Shown here: piece by piece, positions 1-61,169 of the stretch
How the letters are laid out: every line of letters starts with the position of its first letter
Numbering within the stretch: the stretch's first letter is position 1
NCBI RefSeq assembly: GCF_963921235.1
Contig: NC_086097.1
Location: forward strand, 125,242,001-125,306,000
DNA: 64,000 bases
Source: Mobula hypostoma
Taxonomy: Eukaryota
Direction of reading: 5' to 3'
Program-made: the position numbers and the translations under genes
The notes under the pieces: model-generated
Databases searched by the model: none
Told to the model about the DNA's origin: nothing
Seen by the model: only the letters and a program-made list of their open reading frames with translations

Positions 1-953
1 TCTTTGCATGTTAGCGTTACACCTATGAGAAATTATCAGTTCCACACAATTAGTTCCATTGATTTTGACAAGTGCATCCCATTGACAAACATAGAATATT
101 ACAGCACAGTACAGGCCCTTTGGCCCACAATGTTGTGCTAGCCTGTTAATCCACACTAAGATCAATCCAACCTCTCCTGTCCACAGTGATCTCTATTTTT
201 CTATCATCCATGTGCCACAGGCAATCATACCGTGAAATGTGTTATTTGTGCCAATGATCCACACAGTCCAAGGATTGCGTTAGGAGCTGCCTGCAAGTGT
301 CGTACTTCCAGCATCAACATAGCATGCCCACAACTCCCTAACCTTAACCCATGTGACCTTGGAATGTGGGAGGAAACCGGAGCACCTGGAGGAAACCTAT
401 GCAGATACAGGGAGAATGCACAAACTCCTTACAGACGGTGGTTGGAATTGAACCCCGATCTTACAGCTGGTGCTGTCCTAGTTAGGTCCAAGGAGTATGG
501 CAAAAATGAAAGATCGGGGTTCAAATGCTTTTTTATCACCACTACACTTTAATCAAGTAATTATAATTGAACATGGACGTACACCACCTCATCATCCTCT
601 GAGATTCTATCAACAACTGATGTCACTTGCTAATTTATAGGAGGCATTTGAGCTCTGCTTAGTTACACTGTCATACAAGTCATATAAGCTACTGAAATTT
701 GAACTCCACTCTATATTCCTGATTCCTTGACTCCTGATGAAGGATCTTAGCCTGTAATGTCAACTGTTTATTCCCCTCCATAGATGCTGCCTGACCTGCT
801 AAGTTCCTCCAGCAATTTATATCGGTTGCTCCGGATTTCCTGCATCTGCAGAATCTCTTCTGTTTTAGTGGTAATTGAAAGTAATTTACTTTGGATTAAT
901 TTTGGAAGTACATTTTCTGATAACTTGTTTTTGTCTCTCTCTTGTCTTATTAG

Positions 954-1368
954 AAATTGCCTCACGTCATCTGATAATCAGAGCAACCTGGAGGTTCAAG
1001 ATAATCGGGTGCAAGTTCTGAAGTCCCTCCCAGTGAATCTGTCGTTGCACCCAGAGCACGTGGACGTTTCAAAGAGAGAGAATTATGGTGCGAGTCTGGC
1101 TGAGAACATGCCCGTGTCAGTGGCAGGAGTGGCTGTGGTCAGCATCAAGACAGAGAGTTACCCAACCAGCTACCCGGGAGCAGCGAACCCCAACGTGCAC
1201 TACAGTAGAGCTGAGAGCGACGAACAGAGAGGGGTGATTTTTGAACAGAGCCTCAGCAGCAACCAATATGAAGTGCTCACCGTTACACACACCAACTACC
1301 TCAAGGATGACCAGCGAAGCACACCTGACAGCAGCTACAGTGAATCTTTCAAGGAAGGAGCTGCTGAA
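954..1368 (+). CDS. GRHL2: GRHL2 internal coding exon (probably equivalent to mammalian exon 4), N-terminal region
   Basis: Acceptor ttgtcttattAG at 952-953 and donor GTgagt at 1369. Translates (R)NCLTSSDNQSNLEVQDNRVQVLKSLPVNLSL...EQRGVIFEQ...YLKDDQRSTPDSSYSESFKEGAAE, which matches recalled GRHL2 motifs (ENRVQVLKTVPVNLSL, YLKDDQRSTPDSTYSESFK). 415 nt, ends in phase 0. Confidence 0.95.
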
Positions 1369-1626
1369 GTGAGTTCTAATTTATTTACTTTTATTTAGAG
1401 ATGCAGCACGGTAACAGGACCTTCTGGCCCAATGAGCCCGCAATACCGAATTACGTCAAGTCAGAATGAGAATCAGGTGTATTGTCACAGACATACGTCA
1501 TGAAATTTATTGTTTTGCAGCAGCAGTACAGGGCAATATATTAAAATATGCTGTAACTTATTAGAAATATATACTGTATTATATATTATATATTTTATAT
1601 AAGTCACAGAATATTTTATGTATTTA

Positions 1627-2153
1627 CACTCAGTGGCCGCTCTATTTCATACACCTACACACCTGCTCATTAATGCAAATATCTAGTCAGCCAATCATGT
1701 GGCAGCAACTCAATGCATAAAAGCATGCAGACATGGTCAAGAGGTTCAGTTGCTTTTCAGACCAAAATTCAGAATGGGGAAGAAATGTGATCAAAGTGGC
1801 TGACTGTGGAATAACTGTTGGGTGGTTTGAGCATCTCAGAAACTGCTGAGCTCCTGGGATTTTCATGCACAACAGTCTCTAGAGTTTACAGAGAGTGATG
1901 TGAAAAACATAAAATATCCAGTTGAGCAGCAGTTCTGTGGGCAAAAAACACCTTCTTAGTGAGAGAAGTTAGAGGAAAATGGCCAGACTGGTTGAAACTG
2001 ACAGGAAAGGTGGCAGCAACTCAAATAACCACGTCTTACAGCAGAAGAGCGTCCCTGAACACACACACTTCGAGCCTTGAAGTGGATGGGCTGCAGCAGC
2101 AGAAGGACCGCACCAGGTTCCACTCCTGTATCTGATAAAGTGCCCACTGACTG
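1627..2153 (+). mobile_element. Non-autonomous Tc1-like element (MITE)
   Basis: TA-flanked TIRs cactcagtggcc... and ...gataaagtgcccactgactg. Internal decayed Tc1 transposase N-terminus (atggggaagaaatgtgat = MGKKCD). Confidence 0.8.
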
Positions 2154-3534
2154 TACTTCATGAAATTCCTTGCAGCAGCAATACAGTGCAATATATGGAA
2201 TATATTATAAATTATAAGAAATATATATATATAGTACAGTTTGAGAATCCCTTATCTGAAATGCTTAAAACTAGAAGTATTTCAGATTTCAGGTTTTTCC
2301 AGATTTTGGAATATATAACGAGATAGGTTGGGATCACCAACATTTCCGACCATGAATTTATGTACCAACTTTAAGCAGTCTTTGTCTTGCACTTGTTCAT
2401 CACATATACAGTATGTACTGATGCAGCCATTCAGCATGTTAGATTTTCACCAGCGACCATCTTGGCAACCTCATCAATGAAATGCTCTGCTGCTTCATGA
2501 TCAGCAGGTGCTTTATCACCACAAGTCTTTAAAAATTGAATGCTCTGCCTTTTTAAAAATTTCTGCAACCAGCTTGCTGAATATTCACAATTACCTTCAA
2601 TTTTCAGTTCATCGTAATATACCTTTGCTTGTTTTGTGATTGGCATACCTTTAAGTGGCACATGTTCACCCTGCTGCAGCTGAATCCACTCTTTCAATAC
2701 ACAATGGAGATCTTCATTTCTCACTTCATCTCAGGGTACGTCCACACTACGCCAGATAATTTTGAAAACGAAGCCTTTTCTCTTCGTTTTGATCTTCGGC
2801 GTTTTCAACCCCCGAAAACGGAGATTTTCAGAAACAGTCTCCAGAGTGAATAAATCTGAAAATGCCAAATATCCGTTGTAGTGTGTACGGGGTAAACGGA
2901 GAGATTTAAAAATGCTGTCATGACAACACCACAACAATAATGCTTTTTCTGCTTCTGCTTGGTACTGCGCAAGCACTGCCGTACGGCTGTTATAACGCGC
3001 AGTCGGTGTGAACGGCGTGAGAGTTAAATTGTGAAGTGAGCTTTTTTGACTATTTAAAACCACTGTCATGGCGTGCTGGAACAGACAGTGGCAGCGCCAC
3101 ATTTCATTGTTTTCTTCTTATTATTCTTCTTCTTATTATTACTACTTTATTGTCGCCAAAGCATTGATACTAGAGTGTGCAATTATGACAGCAATATTTG
3201 ATTCTGCGCTTCGCAGAACCTAACAATTTCAGAACAGACAGCAATGAGACTGAAGCCAGAAGAGTTAGAAGTGTACTCACCAAATACTTTGACCCATAGC
3301 TTACTGAATAAATAAGTATACTCACTTTGCCCTGTTTTCTGTCCTTGCTTGTCTGAAGATGGTTTACCTATTTATGCAAGTACTTCTCTGACAATAGATG
3401 TGTAACAGCCTAATGTAACATTGTATGGAAATACAAAAACACGAGGAATTCTGCAGATGCTGGAAATTCAAGCAACACACATCAAAGTTGCTGGTGAACG
3501 CAGCAGGCCAGGCAGCATCTCTAGGAAGAGGTAC

Positions 3535-3570
3535 AGTCGACGTTTCGGGCCGAGACCCTTCGTCAGGACT
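3535..3570 (-). ncRNA. Minimal type I hammerhead ribozyme motif (PLE-associated), intact
   Basis: Reverse complement reads AGUC CUGACGA A GGGU CUCG GCCC GAAA CGUC GACU: both core boxes, stem II, palindromic ACGU stem III, GUC cleavage triplet and helix I AGUC/GACU. Confidence 0.8.
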
Positions 3571-4633
3571 AACTGAAGGGAGATTTGAAAGTGGGAGGGG
3601 GAGGGGGAGATCCAAAATGATAGGAGAAGACAGGAGGGGGAGGGATGAAGCCAAGAGCTGGACAGGTGATTGGCAAAAGGGATATGAGAGGATCATGGGA
3701 CAGGAGGCCCAGGGAGAAGGAAAAAGGGGGAGGGGGGAAAATAACCCAGAGGATGGGCAAGGGGTATAGTCAGAGGGACAGAGGGAGAAAAAGGAGAGAG
3801 GGAGAGAAACAATGTGTGTATATAGATAAATAACAGATGGGGTACGAGGGGGGAGGTGGGGCATTGTGGAAGTTAGAGAAGTCAATGTTCATGCCATCAG
3901 GTTGGAGGCTACCCAGACGGAATATAAGGTGTTGTTCCTCCAAACTGAGTGTGGCTACACTTACACTTCCTCCCTTACCACCATTCAGGGCCCCAGACAG
4001 TCCTTCCAGGTGAGGTGACACTTCACCTGTGAGTCGGCTGGGGTGATATACTGCGTCCGGTGCTCCCGATGTGGCCTTCTATATATTGGTGAGACCCGAC
4101 GCAGACTGGGAGATTGTTTTGCTGAACATCTACACTCTGTCTGCCAGAGAAAGCAGGATCTCCCAGTGGCCACTCATTTTAATTCCACGTCCCATTCCCA
4201 TTCTGATATGTCTATCCATGGCCTCCTCTACTGTAAAGATGAAGCCACACTTGGGTTGGAGGAACAACACCTGATATTCCGTCTGGGTAGCCTCCAACCT
4301 GATGGCATGAACATCGACTTCCCTAACTTCCGCCTATGCCCCACCGCCCCCTCGTAACCCATCCGTTATATATTTATATACACACATTCTTTCTCTCTCT
4401 CTCCTTTTTCTCCCTCTGTCCCTCAGACTATACTCCTTGCCCATCCTCTGGGTTTCCCGCGCCCCCCCCCTTCCTTCTCCCTGGACCTCCTGTCCCATGA
4501 TCCTCTCATTTCCCTTTTGCCAATCACCTGTCCAGCTCTTGGCTCCATCCCTCCTCCTCCTGTCTTCTCCTATCATTTTGGATCTCCCCCTCCCCTCCCA
4601 CTTTCAAATCTCTTACTAACTCTTCGTTCAGTT

Positions 4634-4669
4634 AGTCCTGACGAAGGGTCTCGGCCTGAAATGTCGACT
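4634..4669 (+). ncRNA. Minimal hammerhead ribozyme motif (PLE-associated)
   Basis: agtc ctgacga a gggtctcggcct gaaa tgtc gact. Core intact, with a C>T change in stem III. Confidence 0.7.
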
Positions 4670-5724
4670 GTACCTCTTCCTAGAGATGCCGCCTGGCCTG
4701 CTGTGTTCACCAGCAACTTTGTTGGAAATACAAGATAACACTGATGCAGACATATTTTATACATTTAACAAGGTGCTTTATTAATGCAACAGAGTTAGTC
4801 AGTTTTTCAATGTTCGTCGTCAGCCGGGTCATACTGTCCGTGAACTCCCTGTCTGTTGCGTCCATACGCTCCAGTATTTGTCTTTTTTTCAGTTTTAAGT
4901 CCTCCTGCGTGAGAGCCAAGAGCAATTCCTTTTAAGTTTTTCTGCTCTGTAACTGGACAAACGCGCACCAAGTATATTGTTTCCTCTTTGCTTGTTTTCT
5001 GTGTGTCCTGCGCGTGCCCAGTAGGAGGAGATTCGCCCAAATATCCACCTAATGTGGACAGAGATATTTTGAAAAATGCTTAGTGTGGACGCCTGTCGTT
5101 TTTACTCAAAACCGGCGTTTTCAAAATTATCCGGCGTAGTGTGGACGTAGCCTCAGAACTAACAGTCTGTGATGCGCAGAGGCCTGTACACTGCCTGGGA
5201 ATCTTCCCAGTGCCTTTTGGAGTTTTCCATTTGTGACATCACCTCAGCGCTCAAACAAAATGTCAGATTTTGGAGGTTTGGATAAGGGGTACTCAACCAG
5301 TACATAAAAATTAAACGTAGTATTGTCGTGATCACTCAAGTCGAGTATGATGTTCTCCTAAGGGGTTGTCTGTTGGTGGGTCTTTTGGTGGCTGTAGAGG
5401 CCAATCTGGGATCCACATGTTCCGTTGTAGTGTAGACAAGGATAAATGGTGGCTATGGTTAGTGGTGGGCCTTATGGTTGTTCAGTCTCTCCTTTTGCAG
5501 CTGCCACTTGCTCTTTGCGAAGCAGCATGGGTCGCTCTCATGTGGCTCAGTTTCATCTTGAACAGATTTCCTCCAGGTCTATCTGTTAACCAGGATCCAC
5601 TATCAGTGGGGCAAGAGGAGAGCAAAATATCGAGGTGGCGTTCATGGATTCATGGACTGTCTTATGCTTTTGTCAGAAGGCTAGCTTCTGAATCAATTGA
5701 ACAGTATATGGGATATAACTGTTT

Positions 5725-6410
5725 AGGTGAGGCGACACTTCACCTGTGAGTCTGTCAGGGTTGTCTAATGTATCTGGTACTCCTGCTGCAGCATGCTGTA
5801 CCTGAATGAGACCCAATGTAGATTGGGGTCCACTTGGTCGAACACCCTGCCTCCATCTGCCGCAAGAGGTTGACTTTGTTAGTGGTCATTCATTTCAATA
5901 TGACTTTACATTTTCATTGCGATATATCGGTCCATGGCCTCCTCCATTATCACGATGAGGCCACTCTCTGATTGGAGGAGCAACACCTCTTATTCTGTCT
6001 GGTTAGCCTCCAAACTGAAGGCGTAAACATTAATTGCTCAAACTCCAGCCTCCCTCTCTCTCTTTTTCCCCATTCTGGCTCCCATCTTACCCCTTCTCTT
6101 CTCCTCACTTACCCTTTTCCTTCCCTTTTTCCAATGGGCCACTCTCTTCTCCCATCAGATCCCTTATTCTTCAGCTCTTTACCTCTTCCACCTATCACCT
6201 TCCATCTTCTTACTTCATCACCCTCTTCCCCCTTACCTGGTCTCACCTATCACCTGCCAGCTTGCACTTTCCCCCTCCCCTCACCACCTTATTTTGGCTT
6301 CTTCCCCTTTCCTCTCCAGGTCTGATGAAGGATTTCGGCCCATAACAATGACCGTTTATTCCTCTGCATAGATGCTGCCTAACTAGCTGAGATCCCCCAG
6401 TATTATGTCT
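5725..6410 (+). mobile_element. Decayed Penelope-like element 3' fragment
   Basis: Degenerate match to 4005-4720 (ggtgaggcgacacttcacctgtgagtc..., ttggaggagcaacacc..., pyrimidine-rich tract). Decayed hammerhead at ~6318-6353. Confidence 0.75.
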
Positions 6411-7214
6411 GTGTCCCTAAGTGTTCATTCTCCTAATGTCTACCCATTATACAATCCCTTGGTCAGTTGGACAATTGCTGATTTAATGATTGCATTTCAA
6501 GTACTCATCAGTATTAACACTGAATAGGCCATTGGGTTTACTCTCAGTTCTATGCTTGTTTGAAGTTTTGGCTCTGTGAACTGGGTAATTGGTTTTTTTT
6601 GTAATTTATTTTTTATTGAAGTTCTAATTGTACCATGATTTTTGGAATTGTCCTTCACATTCCCAGCAAGGAGACTTCCTGAGTAATGTGAATTATTACA
6701 AGCCCAGCTGAAGACAGCGAGCAAATGTTAACCTATAAAGAAAGCTGTTCATAGCTGTGTGGACATGTAAACATTTAGTTGTGTGCACTAGGTGATTCTG
6801 ATAACTTGTAAACTGAAGCTTTCCCTCTGTTTATCCACTCCCTGAAAAGCAGCCAACGTCCGTTGGTTTGGAGGGCACATCTAGGAGGTACAGCTGCTCC
6901 CAGAATGGAAACTGCCCATCTTGGAGACAAATGGTTGCTGGCCCCTGTTTGTATAGGAATATGCACTTAGCAAATTCATGGCCTCTTTGATACAAAGTGA
7001 TCTTCAGTATGGTATGTAAGAAAGGCTTGTAACAGTCGACTGGGAAATCAAACTGAACTGGGAGGCTTGAAATCTGTATAACAAAATGGAGCAATATGGT
7101 TAAAAATTGGTGTAGCCCAGGAGTTTTGTGTGCTTGTGGGGTTCTTAAAGCCCTTCAAGAGATCTGGCACAAAGGAATCTTTGTTTGCTGGCATTCAACT
7201 CTCCTGAAAACTAT

Positions 7215-9387
7215 GTCTTAATTCAGCCCATTTTGTCCATGCCAACCTGGTCAACTGCCTAGTCCCATTTATCTGCACCCAAACCATAACCCTCCATGAC
7301 TCTCTTAAAATGTGTACCAATCCAAACTTCTCTTCAGTGTTGCAATCGAACCCACGTGCATCACTTCCACTGGTAACTTGTTCCATTCTCTCACCACCTC
7401 TGAGTCAAAAAGTTCCCACGCAGGTTTCCCTAAAACGTTTCATCTTTCACCCTTAACCCAAGACCTCTGGTTCCAGTCTCATCCAAACTCAGTTGAAAGA
7501 GTCTGCTTGTATTTTCTCCTAAACATACCTGTCACAATTTTGCATACCTTTATCAAATCTCCCTTCATTCTTCTACGGTCTAGAGATTAAAGCCCTAACC
7601 TATTCAACCTTTTTGTATAACTCAAGTCCTGAAGTCCTAGCAACATCCTTCTAAGTTTTCTGTGCACTCTTTCAATCTTACTTATATCTTTCCTGTGGGT
7701 AGCTGATCAAAACTGCACACAGTTCTCCAAATTAGGCCTTACCAGCGTCTTGTACAACTTCAACATAATAAACTAACTCCTGTACTCAGTATTTGATTTA
7801 TGAAAGTACTGTGCCAATGTGCCAAAAGCTTTCTTTACTACCTGTGATGCCACATTCAAGGAATTATGGTTCTGCATTCCCTGATCTCTCTATTCTAACG
7901 CACTCACCGTGCAAGTACTACCCAGGTTTGTCTTCCCAAAGTGCAACACCTCACACTTGTCTGCATTAAATTCCATCTACCATTTTTAGCCTATTTTTCG
8001 AACTGTTCTGGATCCCTCTGCAAGCATTGATAGCCTTCCTCACTATCCATTATGCCCCCAATCTTGGTGTCTTCTGCAAATTTGCTGATCCCATTTACTA
8101 CATTATCATCCAGATTGTTGACATAGATGGCAAACAACAATGGACCCAGCACTGGTCCCTGCAGCACATGACTAGTCACAGGCTCCAGTCAGAGAGGCAC
8201 CATCTACTACCATTGACTGGCTTCCTCCAAGAAGCCAACGTCCAATCCAATTCACTATCTTATCTTGAATGCCAAGTGTCTGAACTTCCTTGACAAACCT
8301 CCCTTGCAGGACCTTGTCAAAGACCTTACTAAAGTCCATGTAGACAACATGCTCTGCCTTGCTTTCATCAACTTTCTTGGTAACCTCCTTGTAAAACTCT
8401 ATAAGATTGGTTAGATACAACCTACCATGCGCAAACCCATATTGACTATCCCTAATCAGTTCCTGTCTATCCAAATACTTATGTATCTGGCCCCTTAGAA
8501 TACCTCCCAATAACTTTTCCATGACTGATGTCAGGCTCACTAGCCTATAAATTCCAAGCTTATTCTTAGAGCGTTTTTTAAACAAAGGAACACTAATCCT
8601 CCTCTAACCCTCTGGTACCTCACCTGCAGCAAAGGACGTTTTAAGTACCTCTGCCAGGGCCCCTGCAAATTCTGCACTAGCCTCCTACAAGGTCAGATGG
8701 GACACCTTGTCAGGCTGTGGGGAGTTATCTGCCTTAAGTTACCTTAAGAGAGCAAACACCTCTTCCTCTGTACCCTGAATAGGGTCCGTGACCTCACTTC
8801 TACTCTGTGTCTGTCTCCCAGTAAGTACAAACACAAAAAATCCATTTAAGATCTTCCCCATCTCTTTCAGCTCTGTGCATAGATGACCAGTTTGATCTTC
8901 TAAGGGACCAATTTTGTCCATCGCTATCCTTTTGCTCTTAACATATCAGTAGAACTCCTTAGGATTCTCCTCACCTTGCTTGCTACAGCAACTTCTATCA
9001 TTCTTTTAGCTCTCCTGATTTCCTTCTAAGGTGGTCTCTTGAATTATTTAAAAACATTCCTCAAGTATCTCATTTGCTCCTTCCTTCCTGTACCTGCTAT
9101 GCACCTCTTTCTTCTTAACCAGGGCCTCAATATCTCTTGAAAACCAAGGGGCACTTGACCTGTTATCCTTGCCTTTTATTCTGATAGGAACATACAAGCT
9201 CTGTACTGTCAAAATTTCACTTCTGAATGCCACTCACTTACCAAGTTCACCTTTGCCAGAAAACAATCTGTCCCAATCCACACTTGCCTGATCCTTCCTG
9301 ACACCATCAAAATGGACCTTTCTCCAATTTAGAATCTCAACATGAGGACCAGGCCTATCCTTTGCCATAATTATCTTGAAACTCATG
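7215..9387 (-). mobile_element. CR1-like LINE fragment (RT region and 3' end), decayed
   Basis: Minus-strand ORF remnants YRLVSLTSV, SQYGF, VVYMDFSKVFDKV, QGPVLGPLLF, SKFAEDTKIGG; multiple stops and frameshifts. Confidence 0.88.
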
Positions 9388-9620
9388 AGTGAGGGAAAGG
9401 AGTACAAACAGGAAGGTGATAGGTGAAGCCAGGTTAGGGGGAGGGGATGAAGTGAGAAACTGGAAGGCGATAGGTGGAAAAGGTAAAGGACTGAAGAAGA
9501 AGGAATCAAATAGGCGAGGAGAGTGGACTATGGGAGAAAGGAAGGTCTCCTGATGAAGGGTCTTGACCCGAAATGTTGACTGCTTACACACTGTAGGTGC
9601 AGCTTTCCCTGCTGAGTTCC
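9388..9620. mobile_element. PLE-derived inverted two-part insert with hammerhead core at ~9546-9581(+)
   Basis: Purine-rich antisense PLE tail followed by ctgatgaagggtcttgacccgaaatgttgact. Confidence 0.65.
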
Positions 9621-9627
9621 CATATAC

Positions 9628-9707: not shown

Positions 9708-9744
9708 CTCTGCACAAATTTCTGTCTCACTCCCTGATAGATCT

Positions 9745-10704: not shown

Positions 10705-11160
10705 CCAAAGCCACACAGACAAAATGCAGGATTAACTCAGCAGGTCTGGCAGCATCTGTGGAGAGGAATAAACAACCAACATTTTGGCCTGGACCCTCCA
10801 TCAGGAGTGGAAAGGAAGGGGGAAGGAGCCAGGATAAGGTGGGGGGAGAGAAAGGAATACAAGCTAGAAGGTGATAGGTGAAGCCAGGTTAGGGGGAGGG
10901 TGGGGGAAGTGAGAAACTGGAAGGCGATAGGTGGAAAAAGGTAAAGGGCTGAATAAGAAGGAATCAAATAGGCGAGAAGAATGGACCAGGGAGAAAGGGA
11001 AGGAGGAGGGGCAGGTGAGGAGAGGGGAAGGACTCCTGATGAAGGGTCTGGGCCCGAAATGTCAACTGTTTACATAGATGCTGCTTGACCTGTTGTGTTC
11101 CTCCAGCATTTTGTGTGCATTGCTCTGGATTACCAGCATCTGCAGAATCTCTTGTGTTCA
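10705..11160. mobile_element. PLE-derived inverted two-part insert with hammerhead core at ~11032-11067(+)
   Basis: Antisense module at 10705-11030, then ctgatgaagggtctgggcccgaaatgtcaact...agatgctg...ccagcatctgcagaatctc. Confidence 0.7.
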
Positions 11161-11904
11161 TGTCTATGATCGTCTTCAGCCAGTTTACATTCAGAATTCT
11201 CACCTGCTAGTCACCGGGTGACGGCTGAAACGTAAGCTCATCTGTAGCTTGCTCATAGGTTGTTTTAAGAGACCTGTGGGAAGGACTATTATTAATTGAA
11301 TTTATTTTAGAACACTGAGTAATCTTCCACTAGTGTACTAATTTGTAATCATTTAAGATGTTTAGATAAATAAAGGTATATCTTACTCTATGCTTTAGCA
11401 CATTTATAATTTTAAAAACCTGTAAATGACAAAGTTTTATAGTTGTAAAACGCTCCTATATAACTATGGCATTTAATATTATATTATATGTTGGATTTAA
11501 AGATGTGCATTCTTGCACTCTTCTCCTGAGGCTGGGCTTGGTAGATCAGCTACATGTATGTTGGGGCTCACTGGTGATCAACACGTGAGGAGCTGGCGAG
11601 TGTGAACTATGGACAGCCTTCGGCATGTGGGAAGAACAGCTGCATTCAAGTTAGGATTAGGGTTTGATTGTTGGTGGAACAGGCTTTGACCCAAGGATTT
11701 GGATAGTTTTTCACTTATTTGCAAGGTGTCCCAAGTCAGAGGCATGTTGGATTAAGACCATTTTGTCCAGTATAGGTGAATCAAAGACAATGTGGAAAAC
11801 AGGAATGTTGCATAGGGGACAACACGATCTTCTGTATTTCCTCACATGGGAACTGCTTTTAGCAGTCAGTAAAATCCCGTCTTCCCCAGAACATACCCAG
11901 AATC

Positions 11905-13439: not shown

Positions 13440-14030
13440 TAATAACATAGAACACTACGGCACAGTATAGGCCCTTCAGCCCACAATGTGGTACTGACCT
13501 TTTAACCTACTCTAAGATCAATCTAACCCTTCCCTCCTATATAGCTCTCCTTTTTCCTTTCATCTTTGTGCCTATCTAAGAGTTTCTTAAAAGTCTCTGT
13601 CTCTACCACTACCTCTGGCAGAGCATTGTACGCACACACCACTTTTTATGTAAAAATAAAAGAGCTTACTTCTGACACAGCTCCTGTATTTCCCTCCAAT
13701 CACCTTAAAATTATGCAACACACACACAAAATGCTGGTGGAACGTAGCAGGCCAGGCAGCATCTATAAGAAGAGGTACAGTTGATGTTTCAGGCCGAGAC
13801 CCTTCATCAGGACTAACTGAAAGAAGAGATAGTAAGAGATTTGAAAGTGGGAGGGGGAGGGGGAGATCCGAAATGATGGGAAAAGACAGGAGGGGGAGGG
13901 ATATGCCCTGAAGAAGTCTCTGCCTATTCGGGTGATCTATGCCTCTTATCATCTTGTACACCTCTATCAAGTCACGTCTCATCCTCCTCCTCCTCTTCAA
14001 AGAGCAAAGCACTGGCTCGCTCACCCTATC
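13440..14030 (-). mobile_element. CR1-like 3' fragment interrupted by a PLE module (~13717-13900; hammerhead 13779-13814, - strand)
   Basis: Remnant RRRMRRDLIEVYKMIRGID. The insert reads agtcctgatgaagggtctcggcctgaaacatcaact on the minus strand. Confidence 0.75.
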
Positions 14031-20743: not shown

Positions 20744-20840
20744 AGTCCTGACGAAGGGTCTCGGCCTGAAACGTCGACTGCGCCTCTTCCTATAGATGCT
20801 GCTTGGCCTGCTGCGTTCACCAGCAACTTTGATGTGTGTA
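20744..20840 (+). mobile_element. 97-bp PLE-derived mini insertion starting with an intact hammerhead motif (20744-20779)
   Basis: agtcctgacgaagggtctcggcctgaaacgtcgact. 12-bp TSD actggaattttt at 20732-20743 and 20841-20852. Confidence 0.85.
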
Positions 20841-21447: not shown

Positions 21448-21744
21448 AGAGCAAAACATACAGTGAAATGCGTTGTTTTGTGTTGACAACCAACGCAGTT
21501 TGCTGATTATGCTGGGGGCAGCCCCCAAGTGTCACTACACTTCCGGTGCCAACATAGCGTGCTCACCACAGGCCAGTAAGACATGGGAGCAGAAATTAGG
21601 CCATTCCATCATGGCTGATTTATTACCCCTCTCAACACCATTTTCCTGCCCTTATCCCCGTAACCTTTGATACCCTGACTAATCAAGAACCCATCAACCC
21701 TGCTAAAGAAATTCCTCCTCATCTCTGTTCTGAAAGGACGTCTG

Positions 21745-37825: not shown

Positions 37826-38045
37826 ACAACACACACGCACGCAATATGCTGGTGGAACTCTCAGTGGGTCAGGTAGCATGTATAGAAATGAATAAACAGT
37901 TGATGTTTTGGGTCGAGAAACTTCATGAGCCCAACACATCGACTGTTTATTCCTGTCCATAGATGCTGCCTGACTTGCTGAGTTCCTCCAGCATTTTGTG
38001 TGTGATGCCTCTGGACTTGCAGCATCTGCAGAATCTCTTGTATTT
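37826..38045. mobile_element. PLE-derived fold-back insert (decayed)
   Basis: Antisense module then sense module, with the junction near 37925 inside decayed hammerhead sequence. Confidence 0.7.
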
Positions 38046-38849: not shown

Positions 38850-39498
38850 CACTAAGTGGCCACTTTATTAGGTACCTCCTGTAGCCCATCCACTTCAAGG
38901 TTCAACATGTTGTGCATGCAGCCATGCTCTTTTGCACACCATTGTTGTATCACATGATTATTTGAGTTACTGTCACCTTCCTATCAGCTTGAACCAGTCT
39001 GGCCATTCTCCTCTGATCTCTCTCAATTACAAGGCACTTTTTCCCTCAGAACTGCCACTCACTGGATGTTTTTCATTTTCCACACCATTCTCTGTAAACT
39101 CTAGAGACTACTCAGATTTCAAATCTACTCCTCAAATTTTTTTCTCCAGTCCTGCCGAAGGGTTTCAGCCCAAGACGTCGACTGTACTTTTTTCTATAGA
39201 TGCTGCCTGGCCTGCTGAGTTCCTCCAGCATTTTGTGTGTGGAACTCTAGAGAATGTTGTGCATGAAAATCCCAGATCAACAGTTTCTGAGATCCTCAAA
39301 CCACCCTGTCTGGCACCAACAATTATTCCACGGTCAAAGTCACTGAGATCACATTTCTTCCTCATTCTGACATTTGGTCTGAACAGCAGCTGAACTTCTT
39401 GACCATGTCTGAATGTTTTTATGCATGGAGTGGCTGATTAGATTATTTACGTTAAGGAGTAGATGTACAGGTGTACCTAATAAAGTGGCCACTGAGTG
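38850..39498 (-). mobile_element. Non-autonomous Tc1-like element with nested PLE mini insert (39108-39242)
   Basis: TIRs cactaagtggccactttattagg and cctaataaagtggccactgagtg|TA. ORF 39165-39365(-) MRKKCDLSDFDRGIIVGARQGGLRISET is a Tc1 N-terminus. Insert TSD aactctagaga at 39097-39107 and 39243-39253. Confidence 0.85.
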
Positions 39499-43280: not shown

Positions 43281-43409
<129 letters not shown>

Positions 43410-50685: not shown

Positions 50686-52044
50686 GAAATCCCAAAGTTA
50701 TTTTTCCCTGATGGATTGGAAGGTTCAATTGTGAATTTATTCATAGAACAGGGAGTTCCTCTTTATTTATCATCTTGGAAAGAGCTATAGGGTGGCTCAG
50801 TGATGCAGCCAGTGCCACATGTTCCATCCTGACCTTTATTTACACATTCCTCCTGTGACCATGTGGGTTTCCTCCAGTCATGCAATACAGTACCTTCCCA
50901 CATCCCAAAGATGTGTCGGTTGGTCGGTTAATTGGCACTGCAAATAGTCCCTAGTGTGCAGGTGAGTGGTAGAATCTTGGGAAAGGGGTTGTGGAGAGAG
51001 GTAATAAGATCTGGGGGAGAATAAAATGGGTTCAGTGTAAATGGGAGTGTGATTATTGTGGCCAGGAAGGCCTTTTCCTGTGCTGTAACACCCCGTGTTT
51101 GTGCCAAACGACAGCACTCATGCATATTGTGGTTTTGAAACCTGAAGGTTTTTCTCAGTATGTCAAACAATACCTTCTTGTATGAATTTGACAACAGTAT
51201 CAGAATAATAAATCTTATTTAGCGATATTGCATGGTAGCAGGCTGTTCCAGCCCAACAAGTCCACGCCACCCAAGTACACTCATGAGACCAATTAGCCTA
51301 CTATCCCATGCATCTTTGGAATGTGGGAGCACCCAGTGGACAGCCACAGGGAGAACATTCAAACTCCTTACAGACAGTGGCACGAATTGAGCCCGGGTCA
51401 CTGGCACTGTAGTAGTGTTACACCAACCACTATGCTGCCACATCACCCACAGTTCACAAAATCCATGTCCCCACCTGCTCCTGATCAGCATCGCATTAGT
51501 TCTAATTACCTGCGAAAGATTCGGTGCCCTTTGACATTTGCAATTTAGTCGTTTCTGTTTTGTAACTATGTTGCTTGTTTTAAAGATTAATTTAGTAGCA
51601 TGAACCAGAGAAGTTTGGAGAGATTTTATCTCTAATGTTTTTTTTCCCTTCTTTAGAGACACTTCAACATGAGCTCTTGTATAACACAGAGATTATTTTG
51701 GATTAGATCTGGTTTTGATGCCCTTCGCATTTGTCCCTGCCACTGACATGACTTGCACTGGGTTGAATGTGAAGCTTGTGACACTGTGTCCCAAAAAGGA
51801 GAATATAGAAAGAAAGTTTGAAGTTGTGTGGGTGGGTGGTGGGTAATGCCAAAAGGAACTCCTTGTGTGGGGCCTCATTCTGCTAAAACAGCATCTCTAG
51901 ATTTTATTTTTAAGGGTTAGCTGTGTCTCTACATGTTGTAGATAAATACTTAACAGCAAGTTTCAACAAGTTATTGTCATTAGGAGATACCTTGGTCTGC
52001 TGTGGGTTCAACAGTCAAAAATATTTGTACGTACATGTCATAAA

Positions 52045-52410
52045 CATAAGGTTCTGCAGATGCTGGAAATACAGATTAACACACACACAAAATGTTGGAG
52101 GAATTCAGCAGGTCAGGCAGCATCAATGGAGGGAAATAAACAGTCTACATTTTGGGCTGACATCTTTCATCATGTCTGGAAAGGAAGTGGGCAGAAGCCA
52201 CAATAAGAAGGTTGGGGAGAAGGGGAAGCGTAAAAAGGTGGCAGGTGATAGGTGAGACCATTTAAGGGTGGAGGGGGGTGATGAGGTAAGAAGCTGGGAG
52301 GTGATAGGTGGAAGAGGTAAAGGGCTGGAGAAGAAGGAATCTGATAGGAGAGGAAAGTAGACCATGAGAGAAAGGGAAGGAAGAGAGACACCAGAGGGAG
52401 GCGATGGGTA
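52045..52410 (-). mobile_element. Decayed PLE 3' module
   Basis: ctgcagatgctggaaat...aaaatgttggaggaattcagcaggtcaggcagcatc followed by the purine-rich tract. Confidence 0.7.
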
Positions 52411-52891
52411 GTTGCAGGATATTTGAGGCCATTGAAACTGTATCTTCAAAGAGAAACCGCAGGGTTGTGAAGACTGCAGAAATCATAATACCCCCTATTA
52501 CATTTAAACAAAATTGGAAGAATAAATTTAGAGTAAGGGATAAGAGATTTGAGGAGGCTTTTCTGGAGACTTTTCTGTGTCTGGACATTGGTATTTCCGT
52601 ACCAGGCCATGATACATCAGTTAGGATATTCTGCACTGTGTGTCTGTAGAAGTCTATCAGAGTTTTAGTCTCTCAGAAAGTAGAGGTGCTGTTCTGCCTT
52701 CTTTGTGATGACACTTATGTGCTGGTCCAAGGACAGATCATCTGATATAAAGGCAGGAAGCTTAAAGTTACTCACCCTCTCTGCCTCATATGGCGGACTG
52801 GCTCACGGACCTCATCCCTATCACTGTGCACAACTTCAGAAAAGAGCTTTCTTACCATGGCCTATAAGCATCTTCCAAGGAATAGAGTTAT

Positions 52892-52987
52892 GTCCTGATG
52901 AAGGGTCTCGGCCTGAAACGTCGACTGTGCTTCTTCCTATGGATGCTGCCTGGCCTGCTGCGTTCCACCAGCATTTTGTGTGTGTTG
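52892..52987 (+). mobile_element. 96-bp PLE-derived mini insertion starting with an intact hammerhead motif (52892-52925)
   Basis: gtcctgatgaagggtctcggcctgaaacgtcgac. 15-bp TSD aaggaatagagttat at 52877-52891 and 52988-53002. Confidence 0.88.
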
Positions 52988-55150: not shown

Positions 55151-56030
55151 ATCTCTCAAAGATGCCTCTGTTTCTCCACACTGCCATTAACCTTGTATTT
55201 TGCCTTCAAATTAACTTTCCAAAGTGATTCACTTCAATATTTTCTCAGCAGATTCACTTCTAAAGCAACTGCTGGCTTCTTCTCCAACTGCAATCCACCA
55301 CTGTCACCTCTCCCACCCCTGCACAGCTCACTCAACTGGTGCAGACTCCTGTTTTGCAGGGATAGTGTAGCATAGCGGTTTGCGCAGAATTTTACAGTGC
55401 ACGAGCCTGGAGATCAGGGTTAGATTCCTGTCGCTGTCTGTAAGGAGTTTTTACGTTTTCCCCATTACACCGTGGGTTTCCTCTGGGTGCTCTGGTTTCT
55501 TCCCATATTCCAAAGATGTACAGGTTAGGGTTACTAAGTTGTGGGCGGGCTGTGTTGGCACAGAAAGCTTGCTGGAAGAACTCACAGGTCAGGCAGCATC
55601 GATGGAAAAGAATAAAGACCTGGCGTTTCAGGCCAAGATCCTTTATCAGGGCTGCCTCCAACACATCCTCGCTGATCTGATTTGATGCAAATGCTGCATT
55701 TCATCCTATGTTTTGATGTTTCAATGTACATGTGTTAAATAAGCAGTGACAGCTTATTTTAACTCATAATGTCAGGGACCCCCTGACGTGTTCAGCAAAT
55801 GAACGGAGTGAATTTTCACTTAGAGCTGGCCGGTTTCTTGAATGATCTAAACGAGGTAGAAGCAGGAAGCTGGTGCACTGTCTGGGTGGGAATGAATCAT
55901 CCTGGGTCAAAAATACACTTCTATTTTTGTACCCATTTCAAGAACTCCCGGGCCAAGTGGAGACTCTTAATGCAATTAATAAAAATTCTTGTCAGGTCAC
56001 TATATCTCCACAGACAAGTGGAGCGTTCTC

Positions 56031-56255
56031 AAACAACACACAAAAAATGCTGGAGGAACTCAGCAGGCCAGGCAGCATCTATGGAGAAAAGTATTGTCAA
56101 CATTTCAGCCTGAAACATTGACTGTACTTTTTTCCATAGATGCTGCCTGGCCTGCTGAGTTCCTCCAGCATTTTGTGTGTGTTGCTGTTTTCCATAGATG
56201 CTGCCTGGCTGACTGTACTCTTTTCCAGCATCTGCAGATTTTCTCATTTGTGATG
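56031..56255. mobile_element. PLE-derived near-perfect fold-back insert
   Basis: Arms ~56033-56108 and ~56110-56184 are reverse complements centred on tttcag-c-ctgaaa; a partial third module follows. Confidence 0.85.
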
Positions 56256-57724
56256 GGGTGTTCTCTAAGAACAGGAAAAAAATATTGGTTACAGTCTGAG
56301 GGGTGATGAGAAAGAAAAAGATTGAATTTTAGTTTAAGTCTTGTCATAAGGTGTCCTTTTAAACTGAGCCTGCTCTTTTTTTTGGATCAGTCTGAGGTTA
56401 TCTGAAAGGGCTTAAAGTGCACTGAATTTGTTTACCTGTGTTTGTCCCTTTTATTATTCAGGAACTCTATTCAGTCCCAATGATCAGAACTGTGCCAACT
56501 GTTTAACAACCAATTAATTATATCTTTCTTTATTTACCCAGCCACTAGCCAATCCATCATGTCCTTGCAGCCAGAGTCTTTGAGTCTTTCATTGGTTATA
56601 TACTTCCAAATGATCATTGTGAAGCACAGTCAGATGCCGCTAATGCTTGATTAATGTTTATTCAGTACTCTTTTCACTGAACCAGTTTTAATTAGTTAAA
56701 ACAGATAAATAGATATTTAATCCACACATCAAATCCTGATGAACAGAGGTGCAGATTCTTATTATGTAAAATTTCTCAGTGAATATATAAACATCACGAA
56801 CATACATTTCATAAAATTAGGATATTGCCCCTAATGAATTAGCTTTGGGAGAGAGACACCAACTTCACTCACCTCAACTCTGAAATGATTCCACAACCTA
56901 TGGACTCACTTTTAAGGACTCTTACAAATTATGTTCTCAGTATTATTTTTTTTATTTATTTTGCACAGTGTGTCTGCCTGTGCACATTTGTTGTTTGTCA
57001 GTCTTTGTGTGTAGTTTTTCATCGATTCTATTGTATTTCTTTGTTCTACAATGAATGTCTGTAAGAAAATGAATCTCGGGGTAGTGTATGGTGACATATA
57101 CAGACTGTGATAATAGATTTACTTTAACTCTGAGGGTTTGGTGTCAGAATAAGGTGACACCAATTAAGATTGAGATGAGAAAGAACAGCTTCTCTCAGAG
57201 GATTGTGAGTGGCACACCTTTCCACAGGTCGCTTATGCATATTTAAGGAATGGATTGCAGGAAATGTCTGCAAGTAAATGAATCAAGGTAGTTTATGGTG
57301 ACGTATATGTACTTTGGTAATAAATCACGTTGACTTTGACATTCAGGGTGTTCACAGGGAGCACAGATAGCACAGGGGATGAGTTAAATAAACTAAAACA
57401 CTATTCAATAGTGTTTTCCCTTGTGAGATGTCTGATCTCACACCCCTCAGTCAAGACCTTTGTGTCCCCAGGTTGCTTCTTAAACATCATTAACACCCCG
57501 GATGGAAAACAATACCTATTGGAAGTCTAAAAGTGTGTAAAACAACAAAACTGCTGGAAGTAGGTAGTAGATTGGACGTTCTCCCCATGACCATGTGGGT
57601 TTCCTCTGGGTGCTCCGGGTTCCTCCCACATCCCAAAGACGTACTGGTTAGTGGGTAAATCGGTCACATGGGTGTAGTTGAAGAGTGTGGGCTCATTGGA
57701 CAGGAAGGGCCTATTATTGTACTA

Positions 57725-58348: not shown

Positions 58349-59172
58349 CTGTGGAGTCTGGTTATCTGGGACACATCAGGACCAGGAAATTTTGGCTCAA
58401 TTAACTGGCTGCTTCAATTAGCCAAAATTTCATGGAAATATTTAAAAAGGTATAAAGATAACAAATTACCACTTAACTGAATAGCAAATAATGTACTTAA
58501 ATGAAATTAAAAACAAATTTGAACACTACCAGTACTACTACAGTACTATAAAAATGTGTATTAGTTCCTAATAATTTCCAACAGAGGAATTCATGCAGGG
58601 CACAGTGCTGGGTTCCTTTGATTGACAGTAAATGAGCAAAATCAGCACAGACACCTAGTGCAGATAATGGACTGCCTTCATATAATGCTTTTGACAATTT
58701 CATCCTCCCAATTTTAATTTACATTATAAATTTCAAGATGGTTATCAATACCTTCAAATCCTTCGTAGTTCCTAACTTGTTGAAGTAGTGAAATCATTTC
58801 ATTTTCACTCCCGGCTGTTTCTGGCATCTCCAAGCCTGAAAGCTTCAAACCACAGTGAGCAAAACAGTTTTGAATTGTCTTACTGCTTAGTTCTCATCAA
58901 CTATCAGTAACAAAATTAATTACTGTTTGAACACAAGCACACACAAATGATGCTGTTTAAAAACTATTCACTCTAAGCATGGTGTAGTGTCTAATGGTCA
59001 TACAGGTGCACGTGACTGGCGCTAGTTAGAAACTGTCTGGCAATAGACTTCTGTCCCAATTAACCAGCATGATGTCCCAAATAAAAGAAGGGAATCCCGC
59101 CTATTTTTTTGAGTAGTTTTTCTTCTTTAAGAGTTGTCCCAAATAGATGGTGGCCCTGATTAACCAATGGCC
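58349..59172 (-). mobile_element. Tigger/pogo-like non-autonomous element, copy B
   Basis: Inverted relative to 47630-48320; acidic remnant EFEGIDNHL on the minus strand. Confidence 0.6.
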
Positions 59173-59261
59173 AGGAACATTTATCACCCCTGTAACCATC
59201 AGATTCCTGAACCAGCGTGGATAAATTCACTCACCTCAACACAACTGATTTCACAACCTAT

Positions 59262-59342
59262 GGCCCGAAACGTCGACTGTATCTCTTCCTAGAGATGCTG
59301 CCTGGCCTGCTGCGTTCCACCAGCAATTTTTATGTGTGTTGC
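59262..59342 (+). mobile_element. 81-bp PLE-derived mini insertion (3' half of hammerhead only)
   Basis: ggcccgaaacgtcgactgt...; 11-bp TSD tcacaacctat at 59251-59261 and 59343-59353. Confidence 0.85.
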
Positions 59343-61169
59343 TCACAACCTATACACTCATTTTCAATGACTCAATAACTCACGTTGTCAGTAATATTTA
59401 TTTATTTATTCATTCATTTATCATTATTATCTGTTTCTTTGTAGTTTGTCTTCTTTTGCACATTGGTTGTTTGTTAGCCTTTGTAGTTTTCCATTGATTC
59501 TGTTGTTTTTCTTTGTTCTACTGTGAATGCCTGCAAGAAAATGCATCTCAGGGTAGTATATGGTGACATATATGTACTTTGATAATAAATCACTTTGAAC
59601 TTTGTCTGGTTTTCACTTCTCTATTTTGCTAGTGGTATGTTCAACATCTCGTGGGGTAGGAGGTACAGGAGGCTGAGGTCCCACACCACCAGGTTACAAC
59701 CCACAGGCCCCTGACCCAGTGTGGGTAGCTTCAGTCACCTCAACTCTGAAATGATTCTTCAAACCTACACTTCTAAGAACTTTCTGCAGTTCAGGTTTTC
59801 AGTATTTTAAAACAATTATTTACTCAGTAAGTCTTCTTTTGTACATTGGTTATTGTTCAATCTTTGTTCATGTTGTGAAGTTTTTCGAAAACTCTGTTTC
59901 AATTTTTCTGTAAATGCCTGCAAGAAAATGAACCTCAAGGAAGTATATGACAACATATAGTGTACTTTGTTAATAAATTTTACGTTAACTTTGTTACTTT
60001 CAAGAATTCACCATTTTGTATTCTCCCCAGCACTTGAATGGGATTGCCTTTAGATTCTGAGGACCCTGTTTGCTTTGAATCTTGTTTTCTGTTCAGAACA
60101 TCTTCCTAATTTGCATTAAATTAATGATTTTGCACAGAAAATTACTGTTTTAAGGAAATGTTATTCACAACTTTCTCTGCTAGTAATTGGAGTATGTAAA
60201 TCATAATGTTTATGGCCTTGGCATTACTATTGCTCTCCTCAATAGACTTTCCTGCCACCCTAAGTCTGTTCTCAGTCTTTTTCTAGTTCAGATTTACTAC
60301 TTTCAATCTTACGTATCAACTTCTCATGTTTCACAATATCCTCCTGATCTGTGGAAATCTCACAGAAATCTCCATGACCTTCACCCACATTTGGTGATCT
60401 GCTGCCCTATAGATTTGGGATTCCTACAAGGATTAAGACTTTCCTTTCTAGTTTAAAAGCTCCCTCTTCAGCTAAGCTTCTGGTCATCATGCAATCTTGC
60501 TGTACCTTTTTAGTTTTCAAGTCTTTTAACCACTTCCTTACTATTTAAATTACAGAGATAATTTCTTAGACACAAACACAAACTGATGTAGGATTTCAAC
60601 CTGGAATGTCGGCTTATATTCCTTCCATAGATGCTGCCTGAGTTCCTCAGCATTTTATATTTGTTGCTCTGGATTCCCAGCATCTGCAGAATCTCCTGTG
60701 TTGCTGACAATTTCTTAGTATTAGCTTGTATCTACATATTGTCATGGATTCAGTCTATTGTCAACACAATAGACAATAGGTGCAGGAGTAGGCCATTCAG
60801 CCCTACGAGCCCTACTGTGATCATGGCTGATCGTCCACAATCAGTACCCTTTTCCTGCCTTCTCCCCATATCCCTTGACTCCGCTATCTTTAAGAGCTCT
60901 ATCTAACTCTTTCTTGAAAGAATCTAGAGAATTGGCCTCCACTGCCTTTTGAGACAGAGCATTCCAATGACACAGAATTATTTATCTTTTTAGAGTATCA
61001 GTAAGGATGTGTTTTATTCATTTTCACCACTCCTGTAACTCCTGAAGGCATTGACTCCTTCCTGAGCATATAGTTCAAGGTATTCCCCAATTCTTTATCC
61101 CAGTGATGATGGATATTTTCACTAGATAGCAGGTAACAACCAAAATGAGCCAATTAACCAATGTTAACT

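Follow-up and report, generated by a model that had tools for sequence, protein, structure and literature searches.

What is the short, hammerhead-like motif that recurs through the introns of GRHL2 in the ray Mobula hypostoma, where does it come from, and does it still cleave RNA? The question arises from a 64-kb stretch of contig NC_086097.1 (the window, 64,000 nt). With a probability of about 0.88, the motif is a minimal type I hammerhead carried in the pseudo-LTR of a Penelope-like element (PLE) that is very abundant and likely of the Neptune type, and its copies in the GRHL2 introns are 5'-truncated, mostly mutated and likely not cleaving RNA. The motif is the PLE minimal hammerhead that has already been described, ordinary in kind apart from the many short copies that start exactly at its front edge. 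It is known in kind, and hence of small general weight.

Density and preservation of the motif

A single repeat accounts for 29 arms in the window, spread over about 22 insertion sites, which amounts to about one site per 2.9 kb and about 10% of the sequence, with arm extents placed by hand. A sequence-only reading had proposed about 20 copies, roughly one per 3 kb. The family and its spacing are as proposed, but the number was an undercount; arms beyond that list are 24519+, 24799+, 31292+, 37913+, 59247+, the pair 56092+/56126-, and 40113+, which has no hammerhead part. A strict hammerhead descriptor, applied to both strands, matches 4 of the 29 arms, those at 3535, 4634, 20744 and 52892 (100 shuffles gave a mean of 0.01 and a maximum of 1). 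These are the motifs previously singled out as best preserved, and they occupy the positions given for them: 3535-3570 (-), 4634-4669 (+), 20744-20779 (+) and 52892-52926 (+), the last 1 base longer than claimed. A profile-HMM scan of the window yields 30 matches at E<=1, with 0 in the reversed-window control, and every one of the 4 sites called damaged and the 13 called decayed coincides with a match.

The core (CUGANGA, GAAA and UH) is complete at 12/12 positions in 8 of the 29 arms. The extra A after CUGANGA is indeed recurrent, being present in 22 of 23 covering arms and in 19/19 aligned motifs. Helix III consists of a palindrome, ACGU in intact copies, whose C15.2 and G16.2 each persist in 17 of 27 covering arms (CpG decay); it reads ATAT in the distant locus L019. 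Adjacent same-strand complete motifs, which could form a tandem pair or supply a dimer partner, are absent among the 29 arms. To call the repeats a family of ribozymes was thus an overstatement: the descriptor rejects 25/29 arms, no arm lies next to an intact one on the same strand with which it could form a dimer, and the core is not favoured over the block downstream of it. A 25-nt pattern taken from this downstream block matched 0 times in contigs, whether from genomes, viruses or metagenomes.

The GRHL2 locus

Four GRHL2 coding exons, all on the + strand with AG/GT ends, frame the copies. The exon at 954..1369 encodes residues 93-231 of sawfish GRHL2 (90% identity), and those at 33586..33642, 37235..37390 and 43293..43404 correspond to approximately residues 231-250, 251-302 and 302-339; a search of the 64-kb window for the exon that follows found none. 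On the exon evidence all arms are intronic, as had been claimed, although the copy at 734 and the copies beyond 43404 are placed in introns by inference, their flanking exons being outside the window. Relative to GRHL2, 17 arms are sense and 12 antisense (p=0.46, 29 arms), so that depletion of sense-strand copies was looked for and not seen among these arms. A host function is unlikely because there is no intact tandem pair, the strands are mixed in this way, and old copies decay freely.

Origin from a Penelope-like element

The most complete insertion, at 3426-4733, displays the anatomy of the repeat. An exact 11-bp target-site duplication (3426..3436) precedes an inverted 5'-truncated arm (3437..3960, -) that holds the last 30 endonuclease codons, 3' UTR, hammerhead, downstream block and a tail of about 45 nt. 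Its hammerhead, 3535..3570 (-, antisense to GRHL2), is intact (core 12/12, helix I 4/4, helix II 4/4, ACGU palindrome). The + arm, 89% identical to it over 493 columns, carries a 5'-truncated GIY-YIG endonuclease frame at 3962..4357 (most other copies stop at 4334-4336) and a near-intact hammerhead at 4634..4669 with C15.2 changed to U and a predicted cut between 4665 and 4666; it ends without a tail at the right duplication (4723..4733). In any through-transcript this second hammerhead would pair with its inverted partner. Inverted arm, tail and 11-bp duplication together make up the insertion pattern described for PLEs in 10.1101/2021.04.23.441226. An inverted 5'-truncated partner with a tail on one end is found at 3437-4722 and at least 7 further sites, and target duplications of 10-15 bp are clear at 8 sites.

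The endonuclease frame, previously placed at 4043-4357 just 5' of the motif, is genuine, but it ends about 280 nt upstream and does not adjoin the motif. It is 93% identical to a Mobula hypostoma protein (P0001) that matches PF01541 at E 5e-4, below the cut-off, while a Pfam scan of the window's own 112-aa endonuclease frame gave no match. Seven of 9 homologs scanned match Pfam GIY-YIG at E 1e-5 to 0.05, only 3 of them at or above the cut-off. The homologs have a YIDD-type RT end, and P0001, P0002, P0004, P0006 and P0013 contain a C-x4-C-x2-C linker before the endonuclease (fitting CX2-5CxxC) that is truncated away in the window. Neither an RT gene nor a full-length element is present in the 64 kb, and an endonuclease search of viral contigs returned 0 loci. 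A hammerhead-like motif follows the endonuclease in 12/20 distant loci, or 12/17 with enough downstream DNA (L004, L015 and L018 have <=21 nt). The repeat is identified as the 3' end (pseudo-LTR) of a PLE because of the GIY-YIG remnant, the inverted 5'-truncated partners, the one-sided tail and the 10-15 bp duplications; judged from sequence, its assignment to the Neptune type is likely. Four of the earlier proposals are borne out: descent from a PLE, a minimal type I architecture, a helix III that is palindromic and has no loop, and a very high copy number.

Relation to known elements

As in the PLE minimal hammerheads characterized in PMC4209133 (Cervera and De la Pena 2014), the ray motif has type I topology, a CUGANGA/GAAA/UH core, a helix I of 4-5 bp, an unpaired base between A9 and 10.1, a G10.1-C11.1 pair, and a palindromic 15.2-16.2 with no loop 3; it lies in a terminal repeat, mostly in solo truncated copies with some close opposite-strand pairs. 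Neither the extra A nor the palindromic helix III is new, because both have been listed as PLE-motif features since that 2014 work. The ray helix II of 4 bp differs from the 7-8 bp of the Schistosoma minimal hammerhead in the same paper. Density is far higher here, with about 22 sites (4 descriptor matches) in 64 kb versus about 4,000 coelacanth and 9,000 Xenopus descriptor matches per genome. The searched parts of PMC4209133 and two of its supplement files contained no mention of sharks or rays. Cartilaginous fishes seem to hold far more such motifs than the genomes counted in 2014, and are therefore good material for probing the role of the PLE hammerhead.

The repeat resembles EN+ PLEs of the Neptune/Nematis type, as these are presented in Craig et al. 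2021 (10.1101/2021.04.23.441226), in its C-terminal GIY-YIG, the CX2-5CxxC linker of close homologs, 5' truncation, an adjacent inverted truncated copy, and a tail at one end only. Unlike the elements in that account, those in the window include no full element or RT and show clear 10-15 bp duplications at 8 sites. Like Poseidon_Ac of Anolis (Frangieh et al. 2024, PMC11167929), the ray element has two alternative 3' ends downstream of the hammerhead, with and without a tail, and no sign of cleaved RNA as template; unlike it, the ray element likely belongs to a different clade, and the Poseidon_Ac ORF starts at helix II.

Hammerhead structure and activity

Stems I and II both covary against distant relatives (0/500 shuffles), as the check proposed for them had asked. 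Over 19 aligned motifs 86.2% of cells pair, 7/8 pairs vary on both sides, and the covariation score is 0.579 versus 0.258 when shuffled and <=0.161 when slid. The alignment was hand-picked (9/29 ray arms and 10/12 distant motifs, L001 and L020 being left out), and relatedness among its sequences inflates the shuffle result. Run contigs match over a block with loose ends at 4634 (3/4 runs) and 4671 (4/4), which are the motif's own borders. These data bear on whether the motif is a chance hairpin in the repeat and no hammerhead at all. Such a reading could draw on an Rfam search of the window at E<=1, whose 7 matches include no hammerhead and are hairpin look-alikes under the gathering score, and on the predicted minimum-energy monomer fold, which pairs core bases. 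It deserves almost no credence, given the descriptor enrichment over shuffles, the covariation of both helices around an invariant-rich core across distant families, and the presence of all four published minimal-hammerhead traits listed in PMC4209133.

Conservation is less specific. Young and old copies are 0.69 identical in the motif and 0.54 on either flank; the downstream block (+44..+79) reaches 0.70 between subfamilies, level with the motif, so conservation is not unique to the hammerhead. Between old copies identity is 0.60 in the motif versus 0.78 upstream and 0.73 downstream. The motif holds 5 CpGs in 36 nt. Preferential conservation of the core, anticipated earlier, thus appears only between subfamilies and species: within the window the core (239/269) is not favoured over the downstream block (767/896; p=0.19).

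Might some sense-strand copies nevertheless be working ribozymes that cut GRHL2 pre-mRNA, or copies retained by the host? The near-intact copies at 4634, 20744 and 52892 are sense to GRHL2, and the copy at 52892/52895 is predicted to fold both helices in context (P 0.86-0.98, versus <=0.15 for three others), a prediction that counts against its inertness. However, helix III is impossible in a monomer, the three copies lie 16 and 32 kb apart, the one at 4634 has its 89%-identical inverted partner, strand bias is absent, the motif decays faster than its flanks in older copies, and the intact copies are simply the youngest. Working copies are therefore very improbable. Published single PLE motifs did not cleave, and dimers cleaved weakly, in the assays reported in PMC4209133; in an Anolis PLE, cleavage by the hammerhead required protein, and the template was predominantly uncleaved RNA (PMC11167929). 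In cofolding predictions the cut-site palindrome pairs between two copies.

The 5' ends of copies

Many copies are little more than the motif and what follows it. With -4 as the first base of helix I, the 97-bp insertion at 20744..20840 (+) starts at -4 with the intact hammerhead 20744-20779, between 12-bp duplications (20732-20743 / 20841-20852), and the 96-bp insertion at 52892..52987 (+) starts at -3 with the hammerhead 52892-52926, whose helix I has 3 bp, between 15-bp duplications (52877-52891 / 52988-53002). The copy at 32066..32141 (-; core 12/12, helix I damaged) also starts at -3. Between -60 and +1 there are 14 copy 5' ends, and 12 of them lie at -5..+1, the edge of helix I (p ~3e-10), with the mode at -4/-3; restricted to ends fixed by a duplication or inverted partner, the split is 9 versus 2 (p 1e-7). 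No 5' end out of 19 lies at the cut site (+25..+31). Ends were hand-assigned from local alignments in one 64-kb window; 22123+ (internal deletion) was omitted from both counts and 24519+ (a fragment) from the 0/19 count. The short copies are not false truncations carrying the UTR of another subfamily, as upstream scores are 6-18 in 12 arms versus 46-72 in 8 long copies (background 95th percentile 22). This clustering appears to be new to the literature and is not among the features given for EN+ PLEs in 10.1101/2021.04.23.441226. Because many cDNAs terminate in the first bases of helix I but none does so at the cut site, it suggests that uncleaved RNA served as template and had a discrete end, or a block, at the 5' edge of the motif. 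A precise RNA or cDNA boundary is recorded in the 5' ends of these fossil copies, at the edge of helix I and in no case at the cut site, so that hammerhead function and pseudo-LTR formation become testable questions.

One tentative explanation, short of an even chance, is that element RNA starts at the A of helix I, in which case the short copies would be run-off ("strong-stop") cDNAs and the long ones products of read-through or tandem transcripts. The mode of the ends agrees with this, and YYANWYY, the initiator consensus, with its A at -4 occurs in 7/10 arms that keep upstream DNA, at a window frequency of 0.012 per position; yet helix I requires AGUC regardless, so the initiator match is not independent, and the junctions lack a consistent extra G. 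In other PLEs, internal RT initiation occurs downstream of the Anolis hammerhead (PMC11167929) and the Penelope promoter sits in the pseudo-LTR (PMC2377424), but in Drosophila Penelope the RNA starts 46 nt upstream of an intron, and it is the end of that intron, rather than the start site, that maps to helix I (PMC4209133, PMC2377424).

A second explanation, held just as tentatively, is that reverse transcriptase stalls or joins the target here, through a bound protein, the helix I boundary, or a pyrimidine tract resembling a 3' splice site. Of the arms with upstream DNA, 8/10 have such a tract before the motif, with AG at -4 as its end, and Drosophila virilis Penelope has a splice acceptor at the 5' end of helix I, as noted in PMC4209133. 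Against it, arms 734, 11036 and 33800 have ACTC in place of AGTC and still start at -4/-5, no GT..AG skip to the site appears among the 15 of 557 run-contig joints listed, and distant relatives have no AG there.

The short copies could instead form a non-autonomous family of their own, SINE- or retrozyme-like and about 90-140 nt long, derived from one or a few masters beginning at helix I. Twelve arms start at -5..+1, including two clean 96-97 bp units with target duplications, and non-LTR retrozymes from PLE pseudo-LTRs have been reported, also in one chondrichthyan (10.64898/2026.07.22.740005). The ray copies share with these a type I hammerhead, a PLE pseudo-LTR origin and short non-coding units, but retrozymes form tandem arrays with >=2 complete motifs, whereas in the ray the copies are scattered or inverted, many of them extend into endonuclease sequence, and the window has no tandem array of complete motifs. 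Moreover, young and old subfamilies have the same start, the copies are of graded length, reaching as far as -677 and including endonuclease sequence, and in the older inverted pair at 10719..11163 the + arm (motif 11032-11067) ends at -4 while the - arm (motif ~10773-10808) reaches -206. A separate family is accordingly quite unlikely.

As a separate observation, use of AG|TC before the core as a splice acceptor is unsupported among the 15 of 557 joints listed and is weakened by the ACTC arms.

A possible life cycle and the decay of copies

For truncated PLE copies as the source, published work would supply most of the steps. In an active parent element, two motifs would pair through ACGU to form helix III; their cleavage after GUC would be slow and probably assisted by the element's protein. 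The endonuclease would make a staggered break, and reverse transcription would begin 85-135 nt downstream of the motif, most products terminating early; here, many cDNAs would stop at the first bases of helix I on the uncleaved template. A more speculative idea, which we regard as doubtful, is that transcripts of Neptune-type elements in sharks and rays start with the hammerhead's first base, making the ribozyme a 5'-end (decapping) switch and not a unit-length excision device. Run-off cDNA from the internal tail site would then integrate as 90-140 bp stubs or could jump to the matching hammerhead of the 3' repeat, and such a jump, if real, would explain pseudo-LTR regeneration.

Once inserted, the motif would decay without constraint, and the remaining copies represent various stages and forms. 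The young solo copy at 13720..13902 (-; motif 13779-13814) keeps a 12/12 core with helix I and palindrome damaged. Three other insertions have clear duplications: 59262..59342 (+; 81 bp, starting within helix II at +15; 11 bp), 39108..39242 (+; starting at about -44, core 9/12; 11 bp) and the tiny inverted insertion 40112..40184 (inverted tail and downstream block, no hammerhead; 10 bp). Short decayed copies start at about -4 (728..869, +, old, with tail, boundary not fixed by a duplication), about -2 (55565..55653, -), about -5 (33708..33844, -, old, inverted tail directly before it) and C3 (60570..60705, +, old, with tail and a 13-bp flanking duplication with 1 mismatch). Old long copies include 5687..6416 (+), with a decayed endonuclease remnant and hammerhead (6318-6353), and 21724..22258 (+), which has the endonuclease end and has lost the 5' half of the hammerhead; those at 34725..35060 (-; motif 34830-34865) and 52025..52480 (-; motif 52142-52177) keep upstream UTR to approximate boundaries, with decayed motifs.

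Inverted arrangements recur as well, most of them in old copies. At 9330..9625, whose left boundary is approximate, the + arm begins at about -3 (motif 9546-9581), and the composite at 24389..24926 joins 24496-, the 24519+ fragment and 24799+ within an 11-bp flanking duplication. The joint of the pair falls at the 5' edge of the hammerhead at 31209..31414 (31287-, 31292+), within it at 37833..38046 (37929-, 37913+), and in helix II at 56029..56260, which also has a partial duplicate of the downstream block. The Rfam match to Plastid-psbJ-4 at this last site is a chance hairpin produced by the inverted pair.

The hammerhead motif

The repeated motif is of a known kind, the minimal type I hammerhead ribozyme (min-HHR) of Penelope-like element (PLE) terminal repeats, and was correctly caught by the sequence-only reading. 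Copies were located by a core-heptamer scan and by a profile HMM made from nine window copies, which gives 30 matches at E≤1 over both strands of the window and 0 in the reversed window. With boundaries drawn by hand after merging of fragments, 29 arms (single repeat copies or half-copies) occupy about 22 insertion sites and ~6.5 kb (~10% of the window); they include every one of the 21 positions previously picked out by eye. Offsets in this text take C3 of CUGA as 0, which puts the first base of helix I at -4 and the predicted cleavage point between +27 and +28. The complete core (12 positions) is present in 8 of the 29 arms. A strict descriptor, consisting of the core and 3-bp helices I and II with the extra base optional, finds four matches, at 3566(-), 4638(+), 20748(+), and 52895(+); 100 shuffles yield 0.01 on average. 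Among the 7 Rfam matches in the window at E≤1, there is no hammerhead.

All four published traits of metazoan min-HHRs (Cervera and De la Pena, in the available text of PMC4209133) are found here, including a base between positions 9 and 10.1. The extra A that the sequence-only reading had singled out is present in 22 of the 23 arms covering it, and it is an already published trait of min-HHRs rather than a special one. In one subfamily (734+, 10804-, 11036+, 33800-; position and strand), ACTC replaces AGTC in the 5' arm of helix I, and the 3' arm is uncompensated. The young of the two ray-repeat subfamilies has a branch-point-like TACTAAC, a pyrimidine tract, and two AGs immediately before the core (4614-4637, + strand); positions 4619 and 4626 (+) frequently differ in other contigs.

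Identity of the motif comes from outside the window as well. Endonuclease alignment retrieved 20 distant loci, whose best segments are 33-71% identical. In 12 of them, the motif follows the endonuclease match by no more than about 300 nt; a pattern search picked it up in 10, and L001 and L005 were recognized by eye. Three others have almost no downstream DNA, and in five the motif is deleted, partial, or absent. In a hand-picked alignment of 9 ray arms and 10 distant motifs, 86.2% of cells pair and both sides have changed in 7 of 8 pairs. The covariation score is 0.579, versus 0.258 when shuffled (0/500) and at most 0.161 with slid partners; relatedness inflates the shuffle test, and the slid control agrees. 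Judged by sequence comparison, the motif is kept between the ray subfamilies while neighbouring sequence changes, with a young-old identity of 0.69 in the motif and 0.54 both directly upstream and directly downstream. Loose ends of sequencing-run contigs, among 24 of about 2,800 rows, fall at 4634 in 3 of 4 runs and at 4671 in 4 of 4.

Three distant loci (L013, L014, L017) carry one and the same deleted hammerhead ~100-180 nt behind the endonuclease match, with the core halves lost and helix II retained; they seem to represent a single locus, seen in three assemblies. The contig of L001, with a PLE endonuclease and a decayed hammerhead at 1501-1880, belongs to a bacterial metagenome-assembled genome and is probably a contaminant of animal origin.

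The parent element

A Mobula protein shares 93% identity with the frame at 3962-4357. A search for endonuclease homologs gave 17 of 66 candidates at E≤0.001. Pfam GIY-YIG matches 7 of the 9 homologs scanned, weakly, with 3 at or above the cut-off; the window frame by itself gives no match to this model. The homologs have a YIDD-type reverse transcriptase (RT) end and a C-x4-C-x2-C linker preceding the endonuclease; such a linker is a hallmark of Neptune and Nematis elements in the available text of 10.1101/2021.04.23.441226.

The region 3437-4722 is a single insertion between 11-bp direct repeats. Its two arms are 89% alike: the inverted arm (-) extends to -394 and has a tail of ~45 nt, and the forward arm (+) extends to -677 without a tail. 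This matches the PLE pattern described in that same source, an inverted 5'-truncated partner with a one-sided tail. Direct repeats of 10-15 bp also border the sites at 20744, 24389, 39108, 40112, 52892, 59262, and 60570. The repeat family is, on sequence data, very abundant; contig records on the 785-bp arm at 85% likeness, which are not copy numbers, amount to 188,519 in run X1, from which the window DNA possibly derives, and 73,170 in run X9.

As far as the available text of PMC4209133 goes, min-HHR motifs are known in fish Neptune elements and reach into the thousands in the genomes of coelacanth and Xenopus, and the accessible parts of two reviews agree (PMC6155905, PMC6765202). PLE-derived tandem retrozymes, one chondrichthyan among them, appear in the available part of a 2026 preprint (10.64898/2026.07.22.740005); the window copies differ from them in lacking the tandem arrangement. 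A literature search, covering listings and the papers cited here, returned nothing about min-HHR motifs of rays, nor about the clustering of 5' ends discussed below.

Activity of the window copies

The window copies are probably not active. Inside the window, preferential conservation of the core is not seen: it scores 239/269, against 767/896 for the downstream block (p=0.19). Five old copies have a mutual identity of 0.60 in the motif, 0.78 upstream, and 0.73 downstream; the lower value in the motif is expected because the 36-mer holds 5 CpGs. Distances of 16 and 32 kb separate the three near-intact sense copies. Predicted local folding leaves the helices unformed in three of the four best copies (P at most 0.15), 52895 being the exception (P 0.86-0.98). 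In the tests reported in the available text of PMC4209133, a single min-HHR was not cleaved and dimers were cleaved weakly. For an Anolis element, the part of PMC11167929 at hand describes cleavage as protein-dependent and uncleaved RNA as the main template.

A cluster of 5' ends at helix I

The sole lead here worth bench testing is where the arms begin. Each 5' end was placed by hand, with local alignments, duplications, and inverted junctions as guides. Between -60 and +45 there are 19 ends, with 12 at -5 to +1 and 0 at +25 to +31. Restricting the count to the upstream side, where the poorer detection of very short copies introduces no bias, places 12 of 14 ends in the cluster (p = 3e-10); if the only ends admitted are those that a duplication or inverted partner fixes, the counts are 9 versus 2 (p = 1e-7). 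The DNA upstream of the 12 clustered arms is unlike the UTR of either subfamily (scores of 6-18 versus 46-72). The initiator consensus served for the motif test at the cluster.

Descent from a master copy would account for a shared end. However, the cluster is present in both subfamilies, and in one inverted pair (two opposite-strand arms at one site) the arms end at -4 and at -206; therefore, a mechanism is favoured over a single master copy, which is unlikely and shares the remaining probability with other causes. On the reading proposed here, the RNA that served as template was not cleaved and had a discrete end, or a block, at helix I. Two explanations are about equally likely, at roughly one chance in three each: transcription may start at helix I, or helix I may be a place of stalling or of preferred joining. 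In Drosophila Penelope, an intron end maps to helix I (available text of PMC4209133), and the start is 46 nt upstream of the intron that ends there (available text of PMC2377424). Among 15 of the 557 run-contig joints, none is a GT..AG skip to the helix I site.

The downstream block

The block at +44 to +79 (e.g., 4682-4717, + strand) has an identity of 0.70 between subfamilies. Because it is kept as well as the motif, a second functional element may sit there. The block folds into small hairpins and may be where RT binds or initiates. An ATG within it opens, in older copies (784-, 60631-), a frame running through the tail, a possible ORF start.

Other repeats and the host gene

Other repeats include a fragment of a Tc5/Tigger-type transposase DNA-binding domain (2434-2730, -; PF03221, E 5e-9) and LINE-type fragments at 8175-8603 (-; RVT_1, E 2e-10), at 25560-26009 (-; ALKBH8_N-like, E 5e-9), and, from ORF, Pfam, and protein comparison, at 30219-30500 and 54337-54774 (both -). 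Two short near-perfect inverted repeats (18114-18238 and 19684-19749), with sub-threshold Rfam microRNA matches, are likely MITEs, and 29345-29638 is a short-period tandem repeat, which shows among the listed ORFs as a series of repeated peptide units.

Sawfish GRHL2 matches the frame at 952-1368 with 90% identity, and three further exons with AG/GT ends lie at about 33586, 37235, and 43293 (+). The nearest named proteins come from rays (Mobula, Hypanus, Pristis), which makes a ray the likely host. The hammerhead repeats fall outside these four exons, with 17 arms sense and 12 antisense to the gene (p=0.46). The inverted arms at 3437-4722, 89% alike over ~490 nt and lying in a GRHL2 intron, would let the pre-mRNA fold into a long double-stranded hairpin that might be a substrate for editing.
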